NCBI GenBank assembly: GCA_037146775.1
Contig: JBAWWL010000001.1
Location: forward strand, 133,464-197,463
From: Candidatus Omnitrophota bacterium
GTDB lineage: Bacteria > Omnitrophota > Gorgyraeia > Duberdicusellales > 4484-171
Reading direction: 5' to 3'
Length of the DNA: 64,000 nt
This document shows, piece after piece, positions 4,820 to 60,564 of the stretch (position 1 is its first letter; the number at the start of each line of letters is the position of its first letter). Both the position numbers and the translations under genes were made by a program. A model generated the notes under the pieces. The model made no database searches. It was given only the letters and a program-made list of their open reading frames with translations, and had not been told where the DNA came from.

Positions 4820-5655
4820 TAATTATGAATATGTTTTGGAAAAGATTTAAAAAGAATAAGTTAGCAGTGGGTGGAGCTATATTTGTATTTCTGCTGGTTA
4901 TCGTAGCCATAGCTGCTCCTTTATTTGCACCGCAAGATCCCAATGCCATTGATGTGGACAGTATATTACAGCTGCCAAGCGTAATTCATCCTCTGGGAAC
5001 AGATGATTTGGGCCGGGATGTTTTAAGCAGAATGATCTGGGGGGCGCGTATTTCTTTAGCTGTCGGTTTCGTGGCGGTAGGGATAGCAACACTGATCGGA
5101 GTTATCTTGGGCGCCATAGCGGGATATTATAGGGGCTTGATCGAATCTCTTATTATGCGCTTAGTGGATATCATGCTGACCATACCCAGTTTTTTTCTTA
5201 TTCTTACTGTAATTGCTTTTGTCGGTCCGGGTATCTGGAATATTATGGTGGTAATCGGTGTAACCAGCTGGATGGGGGTGGCGCGGTTAGTGCGCGCAGA
5301 GTTTTTAAGCCTTAACGAACGGGAATTCATTTTAGCCGCTAAATCTGTCGGTGCCAGTAATACCCGGATAATATTGCGCCACATACTGCCTAACGCGTTA
5401 TCTCCGGTGTATGTTTATTTTATTTTAGGTATAGCCGGGGCGATATTATTAGAGTCGGCTTTGAGTTTTTTAGGATTGGGGGTCCAGCCGCCGGCCCCAA
5501 GCTGGGGAAATATTTTGGCTTCCGGACGAGAAAACATGGAAATTGCTTGGTGGTTAGTTGTGTTTCCTGGCATGGCGATATTAGTTACTTGTCTTTCTTA
5601 TTATCTTTTGGGCGAAGGAATTAGAGAAGCGCTGGATCCAAGGCTTAAAACATAA
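4816..5655 (+). CDS. oppC: oligopeptide ABC transporter permease
   Basis: Start overlaps the oppB stop (ATGA). OppC-type permease with the conserved EAA-like loop region. Confidence 0.85.
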
Positions 5656-6746: not shown

Positions 6747-7706
6747 ATGTCAGAATTGTTGAGAGCTGAAAATTTGGTAAAGCATTTCCCGGTCACGTCC
6801 GGTTTCTTCGGAGGAAAAGCCGGTGTGGTACATGCTGTCAGCGGAGTGAGTTTCTTTCTGAAAGAAGGAGAAACTCTTGGATTAGTGGGGGAAAGTGGTT
6901 GCGGTAAATCTACGCTCGCTAAATTAGTCGCTCGGCTCATCGCGCCTGATAGCGGAACAATTATTTTTGAAGGAAAAGATGTGACGCGGTTAAACACAAA
7001 AGCATTGAAGTCTTTCCACCGCAACCTGCAATTTGTATTCCAGGATCCGTACTCTTCTTTAAACCCCAGAATGACCGCTGCTAAAATTATCGCTGAACCT
7101 TTGTCCATCCATGGTATAGCCGGGGGTACGGTCTTGACGGAAAAAGTTAATCAGTTGTTAGATATTGTCGGAATTTCCAAAAACGCGCGTAACCGCTATC
7201 CCCATGAATTTAGTGGCGGCCAACGTCAAAGAATCGGCATTGCCAGGGCATTAGCGCTGAATCCTAAACTTATTATTGCGGACGAACCTATTTCTGCGTT
7301 GGATATTTCTATCCAGGCACAAGTCTTAAACTTATTTCTCAGGCTGCAAAAAGAATTTCACCTTACGTATTTATTTATCAGTCACGACCTGCGTATTATA
7401 GAATATATGAGCGACAGAATAATGGTGATGTATTTAGGTAAGATTATGGAAATTGCTCCGGCAAAAGATCTATATTTTCATCCTATACATCCCTATACTC
7501 AGGCGCTTTTGTCCGATATTCCTGCATTGGGCGGCCGGTCATCAAAAAGAATTATTCTGAAAGGAGAAATCCCTTCGCCGATAAATCCGCCTTGGGGGTG
7601 CAGATTTCATACTCGCTGCATATATGTTCAAGACAGATGCAGGAATGAAGAGCCGCCGTTATCCTTGCGCGATGACCGTTTATTTGCGTGTCATTTTCCA
7701 CTTTAA
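6747..7706 (+). CDS. oppF: oligopeptide ABC transporter ATP-binding protein
   Basis: Walker A GESGCGKST, signature FSGGQRQR, C-terminal OppF-type extension. Confidence 0.85.
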   Translation: MSELLRAENLVKHFPVTSGFFGGKAGVVHAVSGVSFFLKEGETLGLVGESGCGKSTLAKLVARLIAPDSGTIIFEGKDVTRLNTKALKSFHRNLQFVFQDPYSSLNPRMTAAKIIAEPLSIHGIAGGTVLTEKVNQLLDIVGISKNARNRYPHEFSGGQRQRIGIARALALNPKLIIADEPISALDISIQAQVLNLFLRLQKEFHLTYLFISHDLRIIEYMSDRIMVMYLGKIMEIAPAKDLYFHPIHPYTQALLSDIPALGGRSSKRIILKGEIPSPINPPWGCRFHTRCIYVQDRCRNEEPPLSLRDDRLFACHFPL

Positions 7707-7890
7707 TAAAGCTTTTCCTCTTTATGCCTGGTAAGGTGTTTTTGGGGTAGAAAAGCTTGGGAAAGTAGAAAATGCTTTATTTTTAAGGGTTTTTTGATAT
7801 AATAAAATAGTTCGATACTTTTGTAGGTATTCTTGAAAAGAGTATTATAATCAATAATCATAGGCTTATTATAAGGTAAGAGGAGGTAGA

Positions 7891-8154
7891 ATGGCCAGTC
7901 AAATCAATCTGGAAGAAGCAAAGAAGGAAATTAAAAAGCTTGTAGCGGAAATTGCCGAAAGGACAGAAGAGGAAGTCAAGGAAGACGCGCAATTTGCCGA
8001 AGATTTAGGCATTGACAGTATGATGGCTTTGGAAATTGTGGCCAGTATCGAAAAAAAATATAAGTTAGTTATTCCTGAAGAAGAAATTCCCAATATTCGT
8101 TCTTTACGTAACGTATACGATTTGCTTGAGAAGCTGCAGGACAAATCCGCTTGA
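7891..8154 (+). CDS. acpP: acyl carrier protein
   Basis: The 87 aa product has a DLGIDSMMALEIV phosphopantetheine attachment motif. GAGGAGG RBS upstream. Confidence 0.8.
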   Translation: MASQINLEEAKKEIKKLVAEIAERTEEEVKEDAQFAEDLGIDSMMALEIVASIEKKYKLVIPEEEIPNIRSLRNVYDLLEKLQDKSA

Positions 8155-13182: not shown

Positions 13183-13300
13183 ATTATAATTCAGCATGCC
13201 GGGCCACATTTTCTTGACAAGCTTAAGTTTTGCGGTAAAATTAAAATACAATCAGGCAAAAGTCCCGCGTTTGAAGGACTAAATCCCGGACTATAATAAA

Positions 13301-13350
13301 GTAAAACCTTCGTAAGATAGAGTATGATCAAGCGAAGGTTTTTTCATTTT
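13301..13350 (+). terminator. hairpin repeat copy 1 (aaaaccttcg ... cgaaggtttt plus T-run), rho-independent terminator-like
   Basis: Perfect 10-bp arms with a ~20 nt loop, followed by a T-rich run. A near-identical copy lies 118 bp downstream. Confidence 0.5.
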
Positions 13351-13419
13351 ATAAAGTTGAGCTTCCTTAGCCTATACGATAAGGATGCGAAATCCTCCGT
13401 AGCCTCGGCAAAGGAGGAT

Positions 13420-13468
13420 AAAACCTTCGTAAGATCGCGTATGGTCAAGCGAAGGTTTTTCTATTTTT
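13420..13468 (+). terminator. hairpin repeat copy 2 (aaaaccttcg ... cgaaggtttt plus T-run)
   Basis: Same arms as copy 1; the loop differs at 3 positions. Lies immediately upstream of the radical SAM gene start. Confidence 0.5.
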
Positions 13469-13481
13469 ATAAGGCATTACA

Positions 13482-39195: not shown

Positions 39196-40032
39196 ATGAA
39201 AAAGAAAAAAAAGTTGATAATTATAGTCTTGATTCTGATTGCTGTAATCTCGGCAGCTGTTATTTTCATAGAGAAAGAAATAAACAGTAACATTAAAATT
39301 ATTAAGGTTTCCGGTAGTATTGAAGGTGATGAGGTACGCATTTCTTTTAGGGTGGCCGGCCAAATTACCGAGCTTTTGAGCGATGAAGGCATGGTAATAA
39401 AAAAAGATGATATTGTGGCCAGGCTCAATAAAGATGAATTGAGCAAGGTTAAGGCTGAGGCTGAAGCAGCCCTAAAATATGCAGAATACCAGTATAAGCT
39501 TGATTATGATGATTATGTGCGGGCGGAAAATCTTCTTAAAGCCGGGGCAATTTCAGCACAAAAGCGTGATGCTGCCAAGACCACCATGGACACCGATACG
39601 GCAAATATCAAACGTCTGTGTGCTTCCTTGGAATTAGCCAATACAAAATTAGGCTGGGCAGATTTAGCCAGCCCCCTTGACGGTTATGTCTTGGTAAAGA
39701 GCTCTTTAGCCGGCGAAGTGGTGCAGGCAGGCACGCCGGTTTTTACCGCCATAAACTTGGATGACCTATGGGTTACTGCTTATGTTAACGAAACTGACTT
39801 GGGCAAGGTGAAATTAGGGCAGAAAGCGCATGTGCAAACAGACAGTTATCCCAACAAGAAATATAACGGGTGGATTTCGTTTATCGCCAGCCAGGCAGAG
39901 TTTACCCCTAAATATATACAAACTACCGAAGAAAGGGTTAAATACGTCTATCGGATAAAGGTAAGAGTCGACAATTCCAGTCTTGACCTAAAACCCGGCA
40001 TGCCTGCGGACGCGTATATACATATTAAATAA
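39196..40032 (+). CDS. HlyD-family periplasmic adaptor (membrane fusion protein), YbhG-like
   Basis: N-terminal TM anchor, coiled-coil, and C-terminal lipoyl/beta-barrel motifs. AAGGAGG RBS. Confidence 0.75.
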   Translation: MKKKKKLIIIVLILIAVISAAVIFIEKEINSNIKIIKVSGSIEGDEVRISFRVAGQITELLSDEGMVIKKDDIVARLNKDELSKVKAEAEAALKYAEYQYKLDYDDYVRAENLLKAGAISAQKRDAAKTTMDTDTANIKRLCASLELANTKLGWADLASPLDGYVLVKSSLAGEVVQAGTPVFTAINLDDLWVTAYVNETDLGKVKLGQKAHVQTDSYPNKKYNGWISFIASQAEFTPKYIQTTEERVKYVYRIKVRVDNSSLDLKPGMPADAYIHIK

Positions 40033-40151
40033 TACAGATGACAGAAGACAGAAGTCAGATGACAGAAGGCGGAAGACGGTGGTAAAAATCGAAATCTGAC
40101 CTCTGATTTCTGACGTCTGACCCTTGACCTCTGCGCCTGGCCTCTGAAATT
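40033..40151. repeat. imperfect inverted repeat built from tandem heptamers (GACAGAA-like arm / TCTGACC-like arm)
   Basis: Left arm cagatgacagaagacagaagtcagatgacagaaggcggaagac, right arm atctgacctctgatttctgacgtctgacccttgacctctg. Fills the whole HlyD-ABC intergenic space. Same family as 57421..57680. Confidence 0.7.
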
Positions 40152-40913
40152 ATGATTACCATCAAAACCGAAAATCTCACCCGTAAATTTGGGGCATTAA
40201 CCGCTCTCGATCGCTTGAATCTACAGGTTCAGGAGGGGGAAATCTTTGGCTTAGTTGGACCAGATGGGGCGGGTAAAACTACTACCATGCGGCTTCTAAC
40301 CGGAATTTTAGACCCCACAGAAGGAGAGGCTTGGGTTTACGATAAACATACTGTCAAAGAGGCTGAACCGTTAAAAGAGTATATTGCCTATATGTCGCAA
40401 CGTTTCGGGCTTTATGAAGAATTAACGGTGCTGGAGAATATCCATTTTTACGCCGATATTTACGGCGTAGCCAAAGAGAACCGCGAGCCTGCTATTGATC
40501 GGCTGCTAGGGTTTTCCGGACTACTGCCTTTTAAGCAACGTCTTGCCGGGAAACTTTCCGGAGGAATGAAACAGAAGCTAGGCCTTGCCTGCGCGCTTAT
40601 TCATACTCCTAAGGTCTTATTTCTTGATGAGCCGACAAACGGTGTTGATCCAGTTTCTAGGCGGGATTTCTGGAATATACTTTACGACCTTTTAAAAGAA
40701 AAAGTTACTATATTTTGTTCTACCTGCTATCTTGACGAAGCTGAGCGCTGTGGCAGAGTCGGTCTAATGCATAAGGGTAAGCTTTTGCGCTGTGAATCTC
40801 CGGATAAAATAAAAAAAGAATGTAATGTTAAAACATTGGAAGAAGCGTTTGTGACGATAATTAAAGAATACGAAGCGTCAAATCCAAATGACAAAATCAA
40901 AATTTCAAAATAA
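40152..40913 (+). CDS. ABC transporter ATP-binding protein (ABC-2 type exporter ATPase 1)
   Basis: Walker A GPDGAGKTT, signature LSGGMKQK, Walker B LFLDEPT. Confidence 0.8.
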   Translation: MITIKTENLTRKFGALTALDRLNLQVQEGEIFGLVGPDGAGKTTTMRLLTGILDPTEGEAWVYDKHTVKEAEPLKEYIAYMSQRFGLYEELTVLENIHFYADIYGVAKENREPAIDRLLGFSGLLPFKQRLAGKLSGGMKQKLGLACALIHTPKVLFLDEPTNGVDPVSRRDFWNILYDLLKEKVTIFCSTCYLDEAERCGRVGLMHKGKLLRCESPDKIKKECNVKTLEEAFVTIIKEYEASNPNDKIKISK

Positions 40914-43049: not shown

Positions 43050-43075
43050 AACACAGATTGCACAGATTAAAATAT

Positions 43076-43124
43076 AGATTACACAGATTTTAGAAAGATA
43101 GGGAAAAATAATCTGCGTAATCTC
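43076..43124. repeat. intergenic hairpin: agattacacagatt ... aatctgcgtaatct, with cacagatt direct repeats
   Basis: 14-bp imperfect arms with a ~20 nt loop between the two permease genes. The motif cacagatt occurs three times. Confidence 0.5.
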
Positions 43125-43134
43125 TTAAACAAAT

Positions 43135-53099: not shown

Positions 53100-53300
53100 G
53101 TTTTTTAATACCCTGACAGATAAATTTTTTTGTCGTGGCGCTATGGATAATACAAAAGCCGCTTTTTTAAAAAGCGGCTTTTTTTCTTTCTTCGTTGTCT
53201 TTTTTGCGAGTTATGGGGCATATCGCTTGAGCGCAAGTTTTTTTTGATTAGAAAGCCAATTTTCGTTATAATAAGGATCATGGACAAGAGGGTATTGCGT

Positions 53301-53876: not shown

Positions 53877-55832
53877 ATGATACATAATTTATATTTTCAA
53901 CGCATAAAGGTGGTCTTGTTCTTTGCCGCTTTTATTTTTTTCCTTTTTGGCGGAAATACTTGTTTTGCCCAGGAGAGCGAACGCATCTCGGCGTTTAAAA
54001 GCGATATACAGGTTTATAAAGACGGTTCCATGTCTGTTACCGAAACTATTACTGTGCAAAGCGCTGGTGTGTCTATCCGGCACGGTATTTATCGTGACTT
54101 TCCTGTTACTTATAAGGATAAGCTTGGCAATTCCTATACGGTTGATTTCAAAGTAACGAGTGTGTTGCGGGATGGTATGCATGAGCCTTATCACCTTCAG
54201 CCACTCTCCAACGGCGTACGCATTTATATGGGGCGAAAGGACGCGTTGTTGGCTGCCGGACAGTATACTTACGTCCTTACCTACGAAACAAACCGGCAGC
54301 TCGGCTTCTTTAAAGATTTCGACGAGTTGTACTGGAATGTGACTGGAAATGGCTGGGCCTTTACTATTGAGGAGGCAGAGGTGAGAATAAGGCTCCCTGA
54401 CGGCATATCCAGAAAAGTTCGTCTTATGGATGGCTATACCGGTTATCAAGGCTCGCGAGAAAAAAACTTTTCAGCATCGCGGGATGAATTTGGAAGAATC
54501 ATTTTTACAACTACGCAACCGCTCGGGCCTCGGCAAGGGTTGACTATCGCGGTTTCTTGGCCTAAAGGCTGCATCAGCGAACCAACCATGCAAAAGAAGT
54601 TATTTTATTTTCTAAGCGACAATCGAGGTTTATTTGTCGGCCTTCTGGGGATATTGCTTTTGTTTGTATATTATATGACGGTATGGTCCAGGGTAGGCAA
54701 GGACCCGGCATCGGGCACTATCGTGACATTATACGATCCTCCGGCAGGATTTTCTCCTGCCGCAATGCGCTATATTATGAAAATGGGTTACGACAATAAG
54801 GTGCTTACTGTGGCAGTTATTAACATGGCAGTAAAAGGATATCTTTCTATTTCTGAGGCTGATGGCGTGTTTACGATTAAAAAGAACAACGCGGATGTTT
54901 CGACGCTCACGGGCGAGGAGCGAGTTATCGCCGGTCAATTGTTGGGTCCAGACACGGCTCTTGAGCTAAAAAATACAAACCACGAAATTGTGAGCGCCGC
55001 TATCCGCAATATGAAACGTTCGCTTCAGCAGAGCTTTGAGCGAATATATTTTAATACTAATAAAGACTACTTTTTCAAAGGGCTTATCTTGTCCGCCGTT
55101 ACGGTTTTAGGAAGCGCTGCCTTAGTTTGCGTCGAGAAGTTACCCATAGCTATCTTTATGAGCATATGGTTGAGTTTTTGGTCTTTGGGGGTTACTGCTT
55201 TACTGATGCAGGTGTTTTCTTTGTGGCGGCAGATTTTTACCGCTAATCTTAAAAAATCGTCCCTGCTGGGGCAGGCAGTTTTCTTGAGTTTATTTTCCTT
55301 GCCGTTTGTGTGTGGGGAAATTATCGGCATTGGAGTACTAACTTACGCAGTATCGCCTGCGGTAGCAATACTTTTTTTGCTGGTAGCCGTAATGAATATT
55401 TTATTTTATCACTTGCTTAAAGCTCCAACGATTCAAGGCAGAAGAATCATGGATAAAATCGAAGGGTTTAAGGCGTATCTTGCGGCGGTAGAAAAGGACC
55501 GGCTCAATGTTTTATATCCTCGGGAAAAAACACCCGAGCTGTTCGAACGCTATCTGCCCTACGCATTTGCTCTCGACGTAGAACAGGCTTGGAGCGAGCA
55601 ATTTGCTGCGGTACTTGCTTCCGCTGGCAGTACCGGCCAGACATATCATCCACGCTGGTATACGGGGAGTTCTTGGAGTTCTTTCGGGGCTTCGAATTTT
55701 GCATCTAGCCTGGGGGCCTCTTTAGGCAGTGCCATAACATCGTCTTCGGCTGCTCCTGGTTCGTCTTCCGGCTCCGGCGGTGGAGGCAGCTCGGGCGGCG
55801 GCGGTGGCGGCGGTGGTGGCGGCGGCTGGTAA
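53877..55832 (+). CDS. DUF2207-like membrane protein with glycine-rich C-terminal tail
   Basis: N-terminal signal/TM, large extracytoplasmic domain, several TM helices. The tail ends in GSGGGGSSGGGGGGGGGGGW, typical of DUF2207 proteins. Confidence 0.55.
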   Translation: MIHNLYFQRIKVVLFFAAFIFFLFGGNTCFAQESERISAFKSDIQVYKDGSMSVTETITVQSAGVSIRHGIYRDFPVTYKDKLGNSYTVDFKVTSVLRDGMHEPYHLQPLSNGVRIYMGRKDALLAAGQYTYVLTYETNRQLGFFKDFDELYWNVTGNGWAFTIEEAEVRIRLPDGISRKVRLMDGYTGYQGSREKNFSASRDEFGRIIFTTTQPLGPRQGLTIAVSWPKGCISEPTMQKKLFYFLSDNRGLFVGLLGILLLFVYYMTVWSRVGKDPASGTIVTLYDPPAGFSPAAMRYIMKMGYDNKVLTVAVINMAVKGYLSISEADGVFTIKKNNADVSTLTGEERVIAGQLLGPDTALELKNTNHEIVSAAIRNMKRSLQQSFERIYFNTNKDYFFKGLILSAVTVLGSAALVCVEKLPIAIFMSIWLSFWSLGVTALLMQVFSLWRQIFTANLKKSSLLGQAVFLSLFSLPFVCGEIIGIGVLTYAVSPAVAILFLLVAVMNILFYHLLKAPTIQGRRIMDKIEGFKAYLAAVEKDRLNVLYPREKTPELFERYLPYAFALDVEQAWSEQFAAVLASAGSTGQTYHPRWYTGSSWSSFGASNFASSLGASLGSAITSSSAAPGSSSGSGGGGSSGGGGGGGGGGGW

Positions 55833-56004: not shown

Positions 56005-57558
56005 ATGAGTATAGAGAAATTAAACAAAATCAGCCAAAACTTTGGGTACCCTTTTCTGGAAACCAGCTTTCCTAAGCCATTGAGTATCAGAGAAATACTG
56101 GATAGTTTTGAGGAGAATAAGGAAGTCAGTGTTGCCGGCAGGTTGATGACCAAGCGGGAACATGGTAAGTCCGGCTTTGCGCATATCTGCGACCACACAG
56201 GTAAAATCCAGTTGTATGCCCAATTGAATATGCTCGGTAAATTGTACGAGCTTTTCAAGGATTTGGATATAGGAGATATTATTGGTATTAAAGGCAAGCT
56301 TTTTAAGACGAGAACCGGAGAGCTTACTGTAGCTACCGAGCATATAGTACTTTTATCAAAAACTCTGCGGCCTTTGCCGGAGAAGTGGCATGGTCTGAAA
56401 GATGTAGAGGTGAAATATCGCCAACGGTATCTCGACTTGATTGCCAACCAGGATACTAAAGAGGTTTTCATAAAGCGTTCCCGGATTATTTCTTTAACCA
56501 GAGATTTTTTTAATAATTTAAAGTACATTGAAGTAGAAACGCCGATGCTGCATCCGATCGCCGGCGGCGCCAGCGGCAGGCCGTTTATCACACATCATAA
56601 CGCAAACGATTTTGACGTATATCTGCGTATAGCTCCGGAATTATACTTGAAACGCCTTTTGGTCGGCGGGCTAGAAAAAGTTTTTGAGATTAACAGAAGT
56701 TTCCGTAACGAAGGTATTTCTACCCGGCATAGCCCCGAGTTCACGATGTTGGAGGCGTATTGCGCCTATGAGCATTATGAATACATGATGAAAGCGTGCG
56801 AAGATCTGTTTTCGTTATTGGCTAAGACCTTGCATGGTTCGCTCCTGGTGCCGTATCAGGGTGGGACGATTGATCTTACCCCGCCGTGGCAGAGAATTTC
56901 TTTCGCGCAGCTGTTTAAGGACGAGTTTGGCATCGAGCCGAGCGATTCACAGGAAATTTTCCTGGAAAAAATTACCAAGCGCTTGAATCTAACTGCCAAG
57001 GGTTTAAGCCGCAGCCAAATTTTAAATATCACGGAAGAATTGATTGAAAAACATTATCCCAAAGATAAACCGGTGTTTATCGTCGACTTTTTTACCTGGA
57101 CCTCGCCGCTGGCAAAAAAGAAAAAGGATAACCCTTATCTTGTCGAGCGTTTTGAGCTGTTTATCGCCGGGCTTGAGGTTGCTAACGCTTATTCGGAATT
57201 GAACGACCCCATAGAACAGCGTCAACGGTTTGAAAAGCAGCTTGAAGTCGAGGAAGAGCTTCCGAAAAAGATAGACAGCGATTTTCTCTTGAGCCTTGAA
57301 TATGCAATGCCTCCGGCTACGGGTTTAGGTATCGGTATGGACCGCTTAGTGATGATTCTGTTAAATCAACCCTCAATACGAGACGTAATCTTATTTCCGC
57401 TTCTCAAGCCTTTACAGGAGACGGAAAACAGAGAACAGGAGACAGAAGAAAAAGGGCAAAGAACAGAGGTCAACGGACAGAAGACAGAAGACGGAGGGCA
57501 GAAAACAGAAGGTAGAGGACAGAGGACAGAAGACAGAGGAGATAAGGCGGATTTTTAA
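56005..57558 (+). CDS. lysS: lysine--tRNA ligase (class II) with a ~45 aa C-terminal tail encoded by a heptamer-repeat element
   Basis: OB anticodon-binding N-terminus and class II motifs (…FRNEGIS…, …GLGIGMDRLVM…). After the conserved …DVILFPLLKP end, the frame continues through the GACAGAA repeats (QKTEDGGQKTEGRGQRTEDRG). Confidence 0.8.
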   Translation: MSIEKLNKISQNFGYPFLETSFPKPLSIREILDSFEENKEVSVAGRLMTKREHGKSGFAHICDHTGKIQLYAQLNMLGKLYELFKDLDIGDIIGIKGKLFKTRTGELTVATEHIVLLSKTLRPLPEKWHGLKDVEVKYRQRYLDLIANQDTKEVFIKRSRIISLTRDFFNNLKYIEVETPMLHPIAGGASGRPFITHHNANDFDVYLRIAPELYLKRLLVGGLEKVFEINRSFRNEGISTRHSPEFTMLEAYCAYEHYEYMMKACEDLFSLLAKTLHGSLLVPYQGGTIDLTPPWQRISFAQLFKDEFGIEPSDSQEIFLEKITKRLNLTAKGLSRSQILNITEELIEKHYPKDKPVFIVDFFTWTSPLAKKKKDNPYLVERFELFIAGLEVANAYSELNDPIEQRQRFEKQLEVEEELPKKIDSDFLLSLEYAMPPATGLGIGMDRLVMILLNQPSIRDVILFPLLKPLQETENREQETEEKGQRTEVNGQKTEDGGQKTEGRGQRTEDRGDKADF

Positions 57559-57680
57559 CTTCTGACATCTGACCTCTGATATCTGATATCTGACCTCTGA
57601 TTTCTGGTATCTGACACCTGACTTCTGACCTCTGACATCTGACCTCTGATATCTGGCTTCTGACATTTGGTATCTGCTCC
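57421..57680. repeat. large (~260 bp) imperfect inverted repeat: ~16 tandem GACAGAA-like heptamers, a ~19 nt spacer, then ~16 TCTGAC(C/A)-like heptamers
   Basis: Read directly from the sequence. The left arm is inside the lysS reading frame and the right arm is in the lysS-lolC intergenic space. A smaller sibling lies at 40033..40151. Confidence 0.75.
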
Positions 57681-57691
57681 CTGGATAATAT

Positions 57692-58846
57692 ATGAGAACA
57701 GAACTATTTTTAGCTCGGCGTTATCTTTTTAGAGGTAAAGCCAAACACATTTCTTTTATCGGCATTATTTCTTGTTGCGGAGTTGCCTTGGGTGTTGCGG
57801 CCTTGATCATTGTTATTTCCGTCATGAATGGTTTTGACCGTGATTTGATGGAGAGGCTGCTTAAATTCAACTACCATCTTAACATAGTAAGCTCTGAAGA
57901 AAAAACACTGCAGTTGACTCAGGAAGTATTGGCTCGGGAAAAAGGGGTGCAGTATACTTCTTTGACGCTCATGACGCAGGTTTTTGCAAAAATGGGAAAA
58001 TATTTTTATCCTTTATACGTTAAGGGAATTGACTTCAGCAATAAAAACGAAATGCACACATTTTTCCCTTATGTAAAACAACATTCCAAGGCCAACGGAT
58101 TCTTTGTCGGTGAAGGGCTCAAAATGAGGTTGTCTTTACAGGATAAGCTGGAATATTATCCTTTGGATAAAGCTTTTAAGCTAAAAGAAGAGGTTATTTG
58201 CGGCACGTTTAAAACCGGACTTTATGATATCGATAACTCTTATATTATCACCGATCTCGAAAAGGCAAAAAGCCTTTCACCGCACTATTCGTTGTCTTTG
58301 GGGGTAAAATTACAAGATCCTTATCGTGCCAATGCTGTGAGAGATATGTTGCGGAAAGAATTTGGCAATGATTTATATATCGGTACGTGGATGGACAACC
58401 AGGTGTTGCTTTCGGCATTGAAATTGGAGAAGCTTACCATGTTTGTATTGTTAAGCTTGATAACGTTAGTGGCCTCGTTTAACATTTTCGCTACGCTTAT
58501 GGTGAAAGTAGTTGAGAAAACCAAAGATATAGGAATTTTAAAAGCGCTGGGATTTACCAACAAAAGGATTTTGCTGGTGTTTAGCCTGCAGGGGCTGCTT
58601 TTAGGCTTCGTCGGCGTTCTCTTGGGTACTGGGTTGGGTTTGGGTTTGTCCCTGCTGCTGGCGAAATATCATTTCATTAAAATACCCGTGGATATTTATT
58701 ACATGGAGTATTTACCGGTTGCCATAAATTACCGCGATATAACATTTATTGGTCTGATAGGGCTTTTGTGTTCCCTGGTTTCAAGTTTGTTCCCGGCGCT
58801 GCGAGCTGCAAATTTCCAACCAAGCGAGGCGCTGCGCTATGAGTAA
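57692..58846 (+). CDS. lolC: lipoprotein-releasing system permease (LolC/LolE, FtsX-like)
   Basis: MacB_PCD-like periplasmic domain between TM1 and the C-terminal FtsX 3-TM bundle, 384 aa. Followed by lolD. Confidence 0.7.
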   Translation: MRTELFLARRYLFRGKAKHISFIGIISCCGVALGVAALIIVISVMNGFDRDLMERLLKFNYHLNIVSSEEKTLQLTQEVLAREKGVQYTSLTLMTQVFAKMGKYFYPLYVKGIDFSNKNEMHTFFPYVKQHSKANGFFVGEGLKMRLSLQDKLEYYPLDKAFKLKEEVICGTFKTGLYDIDNSYIITDLEKAKSLSPHYSLSLGVKLQDPYRANAVRDMLRKEFGNDLYIGTWMDNQVLLSALKLEKLTMFVLLSLITLVASFNIFATLMVKVVEKTKDIGILKALGFTNKRILLVFSLQGLLLGFVGVLLGTGLGLGLSLLLAKYHFIKIPVDIYYMEYLPVAINYRDITFIGLIGLLCSLVSSLFPALRAANFQPSEALRYE

Positions 58847-59519
58847 GCTATTGGACATTGTTTCTTTGACTAAACGCTATCATAACGGCACGGAAGAGGT
58901 CGCGGCGCTCTCTAGGGTGTCTTTATCTATCGACGAGGGAGATTATCTTGCGATTGTCGGCCCTTCGGGAGCGGGTAAATCAACGCTTTTACATATTATG
59001 GGCGGGCTCGATACTCCTACCGAGGGGCAGGTGTTGTTCGAATCGGGCGATATATATCGCATGTCCGATACCCAGCGGGCCCACTGGAGGAACAAAACGA
59101 TTGGTTTTGTTTTTCAGTTCTATCATCTCATTGAAGAGCTGTCGGTTGAAGAAAATATTCTGCTCACGGCAAGCTTTGTTGCGAGAAAAACCTCTTTTAA
59201 AAAATTACAGGAGTTGCTAAAATATTTAAATATGGCGCCGCGAAAGAATTTTTTCCCTTCACAGTTAAGCGGTGGAGAAAAACAGAAAGTTGCCATTGCG
59301 CGCGCGTTGATTAACGAACCGCGTATGGTATTTTGTGATGAACCGACCGGTAACTTAGACAAGGATTCTCAGGATAAGGTCGTTGGGCTCCTGGAGGAAC
59401 TTAACCGGGAAAAGAAAAAGACAATCGTTTTGGTCACTCATAATTTAGAATTGGCAAAGCGGGCTAAACGAACAGTCTTTATCAGAAGCGGAGAGGTCAT
59501 TAAAAACGCTTCAAATTAA
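58839..59519 (+). CDS. lolD: lipoprotein-releasing system ATP-binding protein
   Basis: Walker A GPSGAGKST, signature LSGGEKQK. Overlaps the lolC stop. Confidence 0.75.
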   Translation: MSKLLDIVSLTKRYHNGTEEVAALSRVSLSIDEGDYLAIVGPSGAGKSTLLHIMGGLDTPTEGQVLFESGDIYRMSDTQRAHWRNKTIGFVFQFYHLIEELSVEENILLTASFVARKTSFKKLQELLKYLNMAPRKNFFPSQLSGGEKQKVAIARALINEPRMVFCDEPTGNLDKDSQDKVVGLLEELNREKKKTIVLVTHNLELAKRAKRTVFIRSGEVIKNASN

Positions 59520-60456: not shown

Positions 60457-60564
60457 GTTGACATGCAAGACCTTAATAGCCCGTAAGAATTTTTGTTTTA
60501 CCTATTAACCTAACAACATAATAACCTAATAACATAGCAACCTAACCACCCAATAATTTATTTT

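Follow-up and report, generated by a model that had tools for sequence, protein, structure and literature searches.

S23p-type intervening sequences (IVSs) are selfish hairpin elements in which short tandem repeats, mostly of 7 nt, make up two arms inverted relative to each other. A full-length copy carries, between its arms, a small gene for a four-helix-bundle protein (PF05635/TIGR02436, 'S23p'); this S23p open reading frame (ORF) is found in long IVSs and is lacking in short ones. The subject of this account is a palindrome of heptamer repeats, about 270 nt in length, that separates lysS from a lolC-like gene in a 64,000-nt stretch of DNA from a Candidatus Omnitrophota bacterium (assembly GCA_037146775.1, contig JBAWWL010000001.1, positions 133,464 to 197,463 of the forward strand). 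This whole stretch is referred to as the window, and its own numbering is used throughout. IVSs have been described in the 23S rRNA genes of Coxiella burnetii, Leptospira, Brucella and Xanthomonas (Warrier et al. 2016, PMC4990558). In C. burnetii, three tandem copies of GACAGAT and one of GACAGAA lie upstream of the S23p ORF, the copy number of the repeat varies between strains, and the 5' cut by RNase III falls at the first GACAGAT repeat (PMC4990558). With a probability of roughly two in three, the window element is an ORF-less hairpin of this S23p-type IVS class that has been expanded by slippage at an operon junction.

Heptamer arrays are also known from a number of other settings. In Xanthomonas, arrays of the unit GGGAATC form 70-75 convergent inverted pairs per genome (Rehm et al. 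2015, PMC4692102), while intergenic TAACTGA heptamers (equivalent to CTGATAA) are found in Beggiatoaceae, Cyanobacteria and Bacteroidetes (MacGregor 2015, PMC4679880). In Haemophilus influenzae, the (ATCTTTC)n array in the 5' untranslated region (5'-UTR) of hmw1A forms a hairpin that is processed by RNase III, and both the hairpin and RNase III are required for the change in repeat number (Rapun-Araiz et al. 2025, PMC12721329). The long simple sequence repeats (LSSRs; Mrazek et al. 2007) and the heptameric short tandemly repeated repetitive (STRR) sequences of cyanobacteria fall within the same class for comparison.

The window element extends from 57415 to 57683. Its 5' purine arm (57421-57540) is made up of GACAGAA, GACAGAG and GACGGAG-type units, and its 3' pyrimidine arm (57561-57680), the more regular of the two, contains around 17 TCTGAYN heptamers. 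Purines account for a fraction of 0.85 of the first arm and 0.36 of the second; the genes on either side are co-directional. The arms are separated by a 20-nt spacer or loop (ATAAGGCGGATTTTTAACTT, 57541-57560), which holds no ORF of its own and contains the lysS stop codon, TAA, at 57556-57558. The original prediction had described this inverted heptamer array, with its first arm in the lysS frame and the stop in the spacer, in the same terms, apart from a spacer of 19 nt. As delimited by TRF, the 3' arm consists of TCTGACA x15.1 at 57561-57666 (score 107), with a period of 21 extending to 57676, and the 5' arm of a strict GACAGAA x8.9 at 57476-57537, with a looser 21- and 42-nt periodicity reaching back to 57435. 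By eye, the purine arm spans 57421-57540, or around 17 unit lengths, with degenerate units at its outer end. Allowing up to one mismatch, TCTGAYNTCTGA has 19 matches in the window compared with 0.82 expected, and all of these are confined to the lysS-lolC element and a sibling at 40033-40151.

An RNA of 280 nt containing the element folds into a single long hairpin of -99.4 kcal/mol (z = -6.7 against dinucleotide shuffles), which bears out the fold that had been proposed. The predicted structure has 87 pairs, seven of which are G-U, with the outermost pair at 57415/57683 and a longest uninterrupted helix of 10 bp. In the stem, GACAGA units of the 5' arm are opposed to TCTGAC units of the 3' arm, which results in approximately one A.A mismatch in each unit. 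The minus strand also folds, at -96.9 kcal/mol, and a strand-asymmetric fold was rejected as a sign of RNA-level selection on the basis of these two values. A search for inverted repeats with exact seeds gave no pairs for the element, because the periodic mismatches break such seeds, and folding and TRF were used instead. Rfam gave no match at the gathering score over the whole window, and for the element at E <= 10 only sub-threshold matches to generic hairpins (miRNA precursors). The last units of the pyrimidine arm also match a sigma-70-like promoter at 57660-57689 (CTGACA-18 nt-GATAAT, 10/12), a match that stops 2 nt ahead of the lolC ATG; TCTGACA units resemble the -35 box TTGACA.

The possibility that such a repetitive sequence might be an artefact of assembly, which had been named as grounds for dismissing it, is excluded. 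NCBI contig CAZTHQ010000013.1 (GCA_964613555.1, a Candidatus Omnitrophota metagenome-assembled genome, MAG) and a Logan contig assembled from SRR12676968 agree with the window at every base, and related elements are found at the same junction in other assemblies. The three compared copies of the element show no variation in length.

The junction between lysS and the next gene in relatives suggests how the element came to be there. In around 75 more distant Omnitrophota loci, drawn from the matches listed in a metagenome search with the lysyl-tRNA synthetase (LysRS) and sharing 50-69% identity with it, the ORF that follows mostly overlaps the lysS stop or lies a few nucleotides from it. It follows that the gene pair was once tightly coupled and that the long spacer was inserted into it. 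Those distant loci that do have a spacer carry a hairpin element of some kind, and in several of them (L127, L158 and L170) this consists of inverted heptamer arrays of other units. Within the clade of the source genome itself (77-84% identical LysRS), the loci L002, L207 and L208 carry the element with the same boundaries, around 10-15 nt past the LLKP codons of lysS on the left and around 10 nt ahead of the lolC ATG on the right. Arm length differs between these orthologous elements. In L002 (83% identical LysRS), the hairpin is near-perfect (z = -9.1). The loop is short in the window, L002 and L207, and harbors an S23p gene in L208. In the closest relative, L001/L206, the spacer is decayed and non-periodic and folds no better than its shuffles (z = -1.0).

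The downstream junctions of the same cluster in relatives, namely lolC-lolD, lolD-ilvE and that between ilvE and the next gene, hold further inverted arrays, with the units ATCAGAN, AACGAAN, TGCAAAN and TCCAAAN. At lolD-ilvE in L002 (13715-14100), arms of TTCAGAG GACAGAG ... and TCTGACC ... lie around 315 nt apart and enclose a second palindrome and a 65-codon ORF that has no Pfam match; the window has 61 nt at this place. A nested insertion may explain this arrangement, as may a loop gene in decay. At the junction beyond ilvE, L207 has an inverted pair (GTTATTAT... / TAACCTAAC...).

The L208 copy provides a decisive connection to IVSs. Here the lysS-lolC arms, GACAGAG GACAGAA GGCAGAA GACAGAT GACAGAG and TCTGTCC TCTGTCT TCTGTCC TCTGACT, are separated by a 126-codon ORF instead of a short loop. 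The encoded protein matches TIGR02436 ('four helix bundle protein', 7.7e-29) and PF05635 ('23S rRNA-intervening sequence protein', 2.9e-31), and it has a weak similarity to Avd, a protein of diversity-generating retroelements (DGRs). In the predicted fold the arms pair, thereby closing a loop that bears the ORF, and as modeled this is the architecture of the long 23S rRNA IVSs.

The association of S23p genes with short tandem arrays appears to be general. A profile search of the collected loci found nine PF05635-like ORFs, all of which adjoin short-period tandem arrays, in Omnitrophota (two), Rhodothermales, Verrucomicrobia (three), Pyrinomonadaceae, Ignavibacteria and Ferruginibacter. CAGA-core arrays stand beside S23p genes of Rhodothermales and Verrucomicrobia, and in L024 and L103 the units are GTCAGAG / TCTGACC. 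Since seven of the nine loci had been selected for containing TCTGAYN arrays, an independent sample was taken by a tblastn search of a plasmid collection, which returned 41 records, nearly all cyanobacterial. In each of the ten examined, arrays of period 7-8 lie 0-43 nt from the S23p gene on at least one side. Arrays are present on both sides in nine, and the tenth has an ISL3 transposase gene immediately upstream, at the place of the arm; six of the ten are clearly inverted, with purine units upstream and pyrimidine units downstream. Overall, all 19 of the S23p genes examined, from several phyla, adjoin short tandem arrays.

Two cases tie such genes to ORF-less and rRNA-borne elements. On plasmid AZO_p2 of Azospirillum lipoferum 4B, one of the ten plasmid genes lies inside the large subunit (LSU) rRNA gene as a classical IVS, and its arms, TCAGAGGACGGATGACAGAGGACGGAGGACAGAAA and CCGTCCTCTGTCTTCTGTCATCCGTCTTCTGA, contain GACAGAG/GACGGAG units as in the window. 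In L158, 31 nucleotides of the arm adjacent to an S23p gene (294-324) recur without change 7 kb away in the ORF-less hairpin at lysS-lolC, in its 3' arm (7433-7463), and the ORF-carrying and ORF-less copies within this genome are consequently members of one family.

The S23p genes are found in a range of surroundings. In CRISPR-Cas operons of cyanobacterial plasmids, an S23p gene with flanking arrays lies between cas6 and cas4 (Pseudanabaena, L214 1504-1863) or between cas10 and cmr3 (Picosynechococcus, L215 1492-1848). The verrucomicrobial locus L103 has three S23p-like genes within 8 kb (2348-2767, 5327-5626 and 7634-7999), each with distinct flanking units (GGGCAAA-type, GTCAGAG and GGACCAG), and one of the ORFs is apparently truncated. 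The Nostoc flagelliforme plasmid pNFSY06 carries an ORF-less CAGA-core pair, AGAAGTCAGAA ... CTGACTC (L211 2664-2792), around 800 nt from an S23p gene that has its own arms, GAGCAGG / CCTGCTC.

The unit of the window element is itself widespread. Runs of four TCTGAYN units in a row are present in at least 120 contigs of a species-representative genome collection. Among the matches listed, the hosts belong to Verrucomicrobiota, Acidobacteriota, Planctomycetota, Cyanobacteria, Bacteroidota, Nitrospirota, Actinobacteria, Proteobacteria and Patescibacteria, with one archaeon, and they include cultured isolates. In this survey the central base was held fixed, since TCTGA and TCAGA differ by one base only. 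Around a quarter of the listed arrays have an inverted partner, with the purine (TCAGA) arm first in a ratio of 18:1, or around 20:3 under a looser definition. The 1.6 Mb of loci, for which the gene models in high-GC cases are crude, yielded 50 inverted period-7 pairs. The purine arm leads in 41 of them, and 27 are located between co-directional genes, where a pair typically occupies the interval between the stop codon and the start codon. Because the element is a palindrome, a reading of either strand meets the purine arm first. This purine-first rule may reflect the full-length elements, in which the S23p start is directly preceded by the purine arm, which would serve as a ribosome-binding region. 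A similar link between the purine arm upstream of the S23p start and the ribosome-binding region is made for Coxiella (PMC4990558). The element had been suggested to be a lineage-specific mobile or recombinogenic element; it is indeed best read as mobile or selfish, but restriction to one lineage does not agree with this spread across many phyla or with the GACAGA-type units of the Azospirillum and Coxiella 23S IVSs.

How closely, then, does the window copy correspond to a 23S rRNA IVS? As in the IVSs, a long stem is formed from terminal inverted repeats, and the 5' arm is composed of GACAGA(T/A/G) heptamers (here GACAGAA and GACAGAG, with GACGGAG) in variable copy number. It also behaves as a selfish insertion, in that its presence or absence differs among relatives, and the loop of the orthologous copy in L208 has the S23p (PF05635) ORF. 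However, the arms in the window are some 17 units long and mismatched once per unit, compared with 3-5 units in the IVSs, and one of them is partly translated as the tail of LysRS. Moreover, the cut by RNase III is a feature of the Coxiella IVS, and is presumed for the window copy.

The history that we envisage begins with a single ancestral IVS-type insertion between lysS and lolC, the stop of the one and the start of the other having originally overlapped there. The S23p gene in the loop would subsequently have been lost, and each arm would have grown and been homogenized separately through replication slippage. Separate expansion is consistent with the observation that the fold becomes no worse when the units of the 3' arm are shuffled (z = -1.0). 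Within a lysS-lolCD transcript, the arms would pair into a long imperfect double-stranded RNA, and, by analogy with the Coxiella IVS and the hmw1A hairpin, this would act as a substrate for RNase III, separating the lysS and lolCD parts of the mRNA. In the window copy, translation through the 5' arm and the A.A mismatch in nearly every unit probably weaken cleavage or limit formation of the stem, and cleavage within the 5' arm would leave the lysS mRNA without a stop codon. The tail of LysRS would have no role of its own.

Several observations weigh against this assignment. The 20-nt loop holds no S23p/PF05635 ORF, and the element lies between lysS and the lolC-like gene, that is between protein-coding genes, rather than in helix 9, 25 or 45 of 23S rRNA or in any 16S rRNA helix. 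With no ORF and a position outside rRNA, it is not a plain member of the IVS class. Nor was a PF05635-like ORF found anywhere in the window or in 67.5 kb of the source genome, and for this reason its connection to S23p is drawn from relatives and from identity of units. The direction of events may be read in two ways, with the ORF either lost from the window copy or gained inside an existing hairpin in L208. Complementarity between the arms is around 62% (78/125 aligned positions) which, together with the longest helix of 10 bp, makes cleavage of the window copy by RNase III uncertain. The order of the 3' units gives a fold no better than random order, and there is thus no sign of fine-scale selection for pairing. 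Lastly, around three-quarters of the TCTGAYN arrays in other phyla are solo, with neither an inverted partner nor a nearby S23p gene, so that not every heptamer array need belong to the IVS family. The signature motif of RNase III was not found in the window together with L204 (67.5 kb of the source genome), a result that carries no information on the remainder of that genome.

Among the alternatives, the one that survives best holds that the structure, whatever its origin, serves the host as an intercistronic RNA that shields the lysS message against 3' exonucleases or determines how strongly lysS is expressed relative to lolCD. It would then play a role like that of repetitive extragenic palindromic (REP) sequences and bacterial interspersed mosaic elements (BIMEs) in enterobacterial operons, and it may keep stop and start near one another, thereby preserving translational coupling. 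Persistence of the element at this junction in relatives with 77-84% identical LysRS would suit such a role, as would the typically exact filling of stop-to-start gaps between co-directional genes, the tight coupling of the ancestral state and the significant fold of the sense strand. On the other hand, the closest relative retains only a decayed spacer and many relatives have none at all, the minus strand folds equally well so that nothing points to selection on the RNA strand, and ribosomes must melt the 5' arm to reach a stop codon in the loop. We regard this explanation as unlikely. It is compatible with a slippage-expanded IVS hairpin, and the two are not mutually exclusive.

Somewhat less probable again is a simple-sequence palindrome that was generated locally by slippage and template switching, is unrelated to IVSs or S23p, and resembles IVSs by convergence. 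The starting point would have been a short intergenic hairpin or one heptamer array, enlarged in the manner proposed generally for long simple sequence repeats. Heptamers are the commonest unit of long simple sequence repeats (SSRs) in bacteria, at least as Mrazek (2007) is cited in PMC4679880, and the units vary widely among the Omnitrophota loci. Strict palindromic duplication, or compensatory selection, would be expected to leave the units in mirrored order. The window copy shows no such order (z = -1.0), and L002 and L053 have it only weakly; this lack of mirroring would agree with a local origin, as would the predominance of solo TCTGAYN arrays elsewhere. Yet convergence would have to account for the S23p gene that L208 has at this junction within the same arms, for the recurrence of the GACAGA(A/G/T) unit in two true rRNA IVSs, for CAGA-core arrays beside the S23p genes of Rhodothermales and Verrucomicrobia, for the arrays flanking 19 of 19 S23p genes, and for the 31-nt arm that, in one genome, an S23p copy has in common with an ORF-less hairpin.

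The lysS gene (56005-57558, + strand) encodes a class II lysine-tRNA ligase of 517 aa, an exact match to MEI8348570.1 from a Candidatus Omnitrophota MAG. Its homologues have 468-493 aa, with PF01336 and PF00152. The protein includes a repeat-encoded C-terminal tail (LQETENREQETEEKGQRTEVNGQKTEDGGQKTEGRGQRTEDRGDKADF, 57412-57555) which, past ...LLKP, measures 48 aa, rather than the 45 or so estimated beforehand, and is the longest among 121 homologues, the others having 0-24 aa. The closest relative, L001/L206 (93% identity), is alignable with the window up to and through the start of the purine arm and there reads ACG TAA where the window reads ACA GAA. The purine arm has only two T residues in 120 nt, leaving two of the three frames (0 and 1) free of stops. 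Given this TAA/GAA difference and the near absence of T, lysS is read through to the TAA in the loop, and read-through of the arm adds around 37 residues. The best reading of the tail is that loss of a stop codon beside a T-poor repeat produced it incidentally, and not that it is a designed extension.

Two remaining readings are very improbable. The first, a functional or phase-variable extension of LysRS in which the repeat number shifts the frame, can draw on the in-frame position of the arm and its open frames. When the gain or loss of one or two units is simulated, the resulting proteins have 498-524 aa, altered tails and an intact enzyme core, and several relatives have short tails encoded by like repeats, for example LQETEDRGQRADDRC and LEGTDDRGQKAEDR, which end a few units into the arm. 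However, neither the length nor the sequence of the tail is conserved, its composition is dictated by the repeat, a single codon separates it from the state of the closest relative, and the siblings at 40033 and 43050 are untranslated. The suggestion of phase variation does not fit the identical sequence of the three compared copies, and the converse idea, that the tail is an ordinary conserved coding extension, fails on comparison of the lysS 3' ends, as a long tail is peculiar to the window among the 121 homologues. If the hairpin is an IVS-type element, it shows how such elements can accidentally lengthen essential proteins, and long low-complexity C-terminal tails beside such arrays should be annotated with caution as products of read-through. 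Just upstream of lysS, a (GGC)n / 12-nt repeat at 55775-55826 encodes a poly-Gly/Ser C-terminus (…GGGGSSGGGGGGGGGGGW) in a DUF2207 protein.

The second, an intrinsic and possibly bidirectional transcription terminator, would suit a long intergenic hairpin that folds on both strands. It is equally hard to credit for an element that has no short G+C-rich stem with a T-run inside it (scan of 56900-58000), is translated over half its length, and lies within a conserved co-directional cluster whose genes mostly overlap or lie a few nucleotides apart in distant relatives. The genome employs terminators of the ordinary kind at other places (for example 53154-53184 and ~15385). Telomere-like head-to-head fusion, H-DNA or triplex, G-quadruplex, a Rho rut site, and CsrA or Hfq binding arrays were considered and dropped, as no feature supported them.

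In some respects, the window element mirrors the other heptamer arrays. It is a tandem 5-11-nt unit repeated beyond chance, as in the LSSRs, and a convergent pair with the purine-rich array first, between aligned ORFs. With the Xanthomonas GGGAATC pairs and the Nostoc arrays (PMC4692102) it shares a build of intergenic tandem heptamers, mostly between aligned ORFs, in which the length of the repeat varies between related genomes and the type of repeat is kept. However, the arrays of that study have units with G3-4 tracts and are interpreted as formers of G-quadruplexes, whereas neither GACAGAA nor TCTGACN contains a G3 run. The hmw1A repeat is likewise a transcribed heptamer array that forms one arm of a long mRNA hairpin, but it is a single array, with the pyrimidine arm first, in the 5'-UTR of a phase-variable adhesin gene, and a known regulatory role belongs to the hmw1A hairpin.

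The TAACTGA repeats have the CTGA core in common with the window unit, and the element at lolC-lolD in L002 has CTGATAN units. Their arrays stop a few nucleotides before start codons, some overlap the end of the upstream ORF, and their phylogenetic distribution is patchy. In contrast to the window element, nearly all are direct arrays of 2-6 copies without an inverted partner, and they have been interpreted as sites for a translational regulator. Finally, palindromes of the REP/BIME type and MITEs (miniature transposable elements with inverted repeats) are also small, non-autonomous palindromic DNAs that lie between or inside genes and are tolerated at operon junctions, and the Rickettsia palindromic elements insert in frame into genes and are sometimes translated. 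The window element differs from all of these in having no conserved terminal sequence, target-site duplication or fixed length, and its arms are tandem arrays altered by slippage. The copies in the window, of around 270, 119 and 85 nt, differ in sequence, and inspection revealed no duplicated flank. The statement in the original prediction that this is not a classical terminator, REP or MITE accordingly holds, given this variation, the lack of a stem with a T-run and the lack of an Rfam match.

Already known are the IVSs, their S23p ORF, their excision by RNase III, the heptamers of Coxiella, and heptamer LSSRs, including the inverted pairs of Xanthomonas. Within the literature searched, no description was found of IVS-type heptamer-armed elements at protein-coding operon junctions in many phyla, of ORF-less IVS-type copies with greatly expanded arms, or of a general flanking of S23p genes by heptamer arrays. 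Neither PMC4692102 nor PMC4679880 mentions S23p or IVSs, and a full-text search with the repeat as a sequence string returned only unrelated eukaryotic papers. We know of no function for the S23p or four-helix-bundle (Avd-like) genes, which are very common, and of no explanation for the bacterial excess of heptamers.

The element may open a testable link between heptamer repeats, S23p genes and IVSs processed by RNase III. A wider reading, which we put forward tentatively and consider doubtful in its full extent, is that the over-represented heptamer arrays of bacteria are largely arms or remains of one ancient and widespread S23p (PF05635/TIGR02436, Avd-like) class of IVSs that colonizes operon junctions as well as rRNA genes, with the ORF-less hairpins as non-autonomous derivatives. 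It would cover the cyanobacterial STRRs, the Xanthomonas GGGAATC pairs, the TAACTGA repeats and the TCTGAYN arrays of dozens of phyla. On this reading, the four-helix-bundle protein, processing of the hairpin by RNase III, or both, would aid the spread of the elements or the change in repeat number. Three literatures, on the heptamer excess, on RNase III-excised 23S IVSs and on S23p/four-helix-bundle genes, may describe one thing. Provided that the heptamer hairpins of operon junctions do belong with the IVSs, the latter would not be an oddity of rRNA but general selfish 'spacers' acting at the RNA level in operons, even those of CRISPR-Cas systems. Heptamer repeats would then have a concrete and testable reason, and sites for processing by RNase III would be predicted in the polycistronic mRNAs of many uncultured phyla.

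Beyond the lysS-lolC junction, the window contains two siblings. The first, at 40033-40151, had been noted previously and is real (-35.1 kcal/mol, z = -3.1). Its 5' arm of GACAGAA/GTCAGAT units (~40033-40080) and 3' arm of TCTGACC units (~40095-40150) occupy the gap between the stop of an HlyD-family gene at 40032 and the start of an ABC ATPase gene at 40152. The second is a small element at 43050-43134, with the unit CACAGATT ... AATCTG, between two ABC-2 permease genes, and its type of unit recurs at the lysS-lolC junction of the relatives L209 and L220. Each of the three elements fills a gap between co-directional genes of transporter or housekeeping clusters.

Downstream of lysS, the lolC/E-like gene for an FtsX-family permease (57692-58846, + strand) starts 9 nt past the base of the hairpin and is overlapped by a lolD-like ATPase gene (58839-59519), an order of genes that is the same in relatives. 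No tRNA genes, Rfam families or rRNA were found in the 64-kb window. Nearly all genes from 1 to 64000 are on the + strand, and the GC skew is positive over nearly the whole 64 kb. A terminator-like hairpin, AAAACCTTCGTAAGAT...GCGAAGGTTTTT, is present twice in one 299-nt intergenic region (~13290-13480), and an array of 8-mers (ACCTAATA), apparently a single arm, lies at 60500-60556 between ilvE and a UVR-domain gene.

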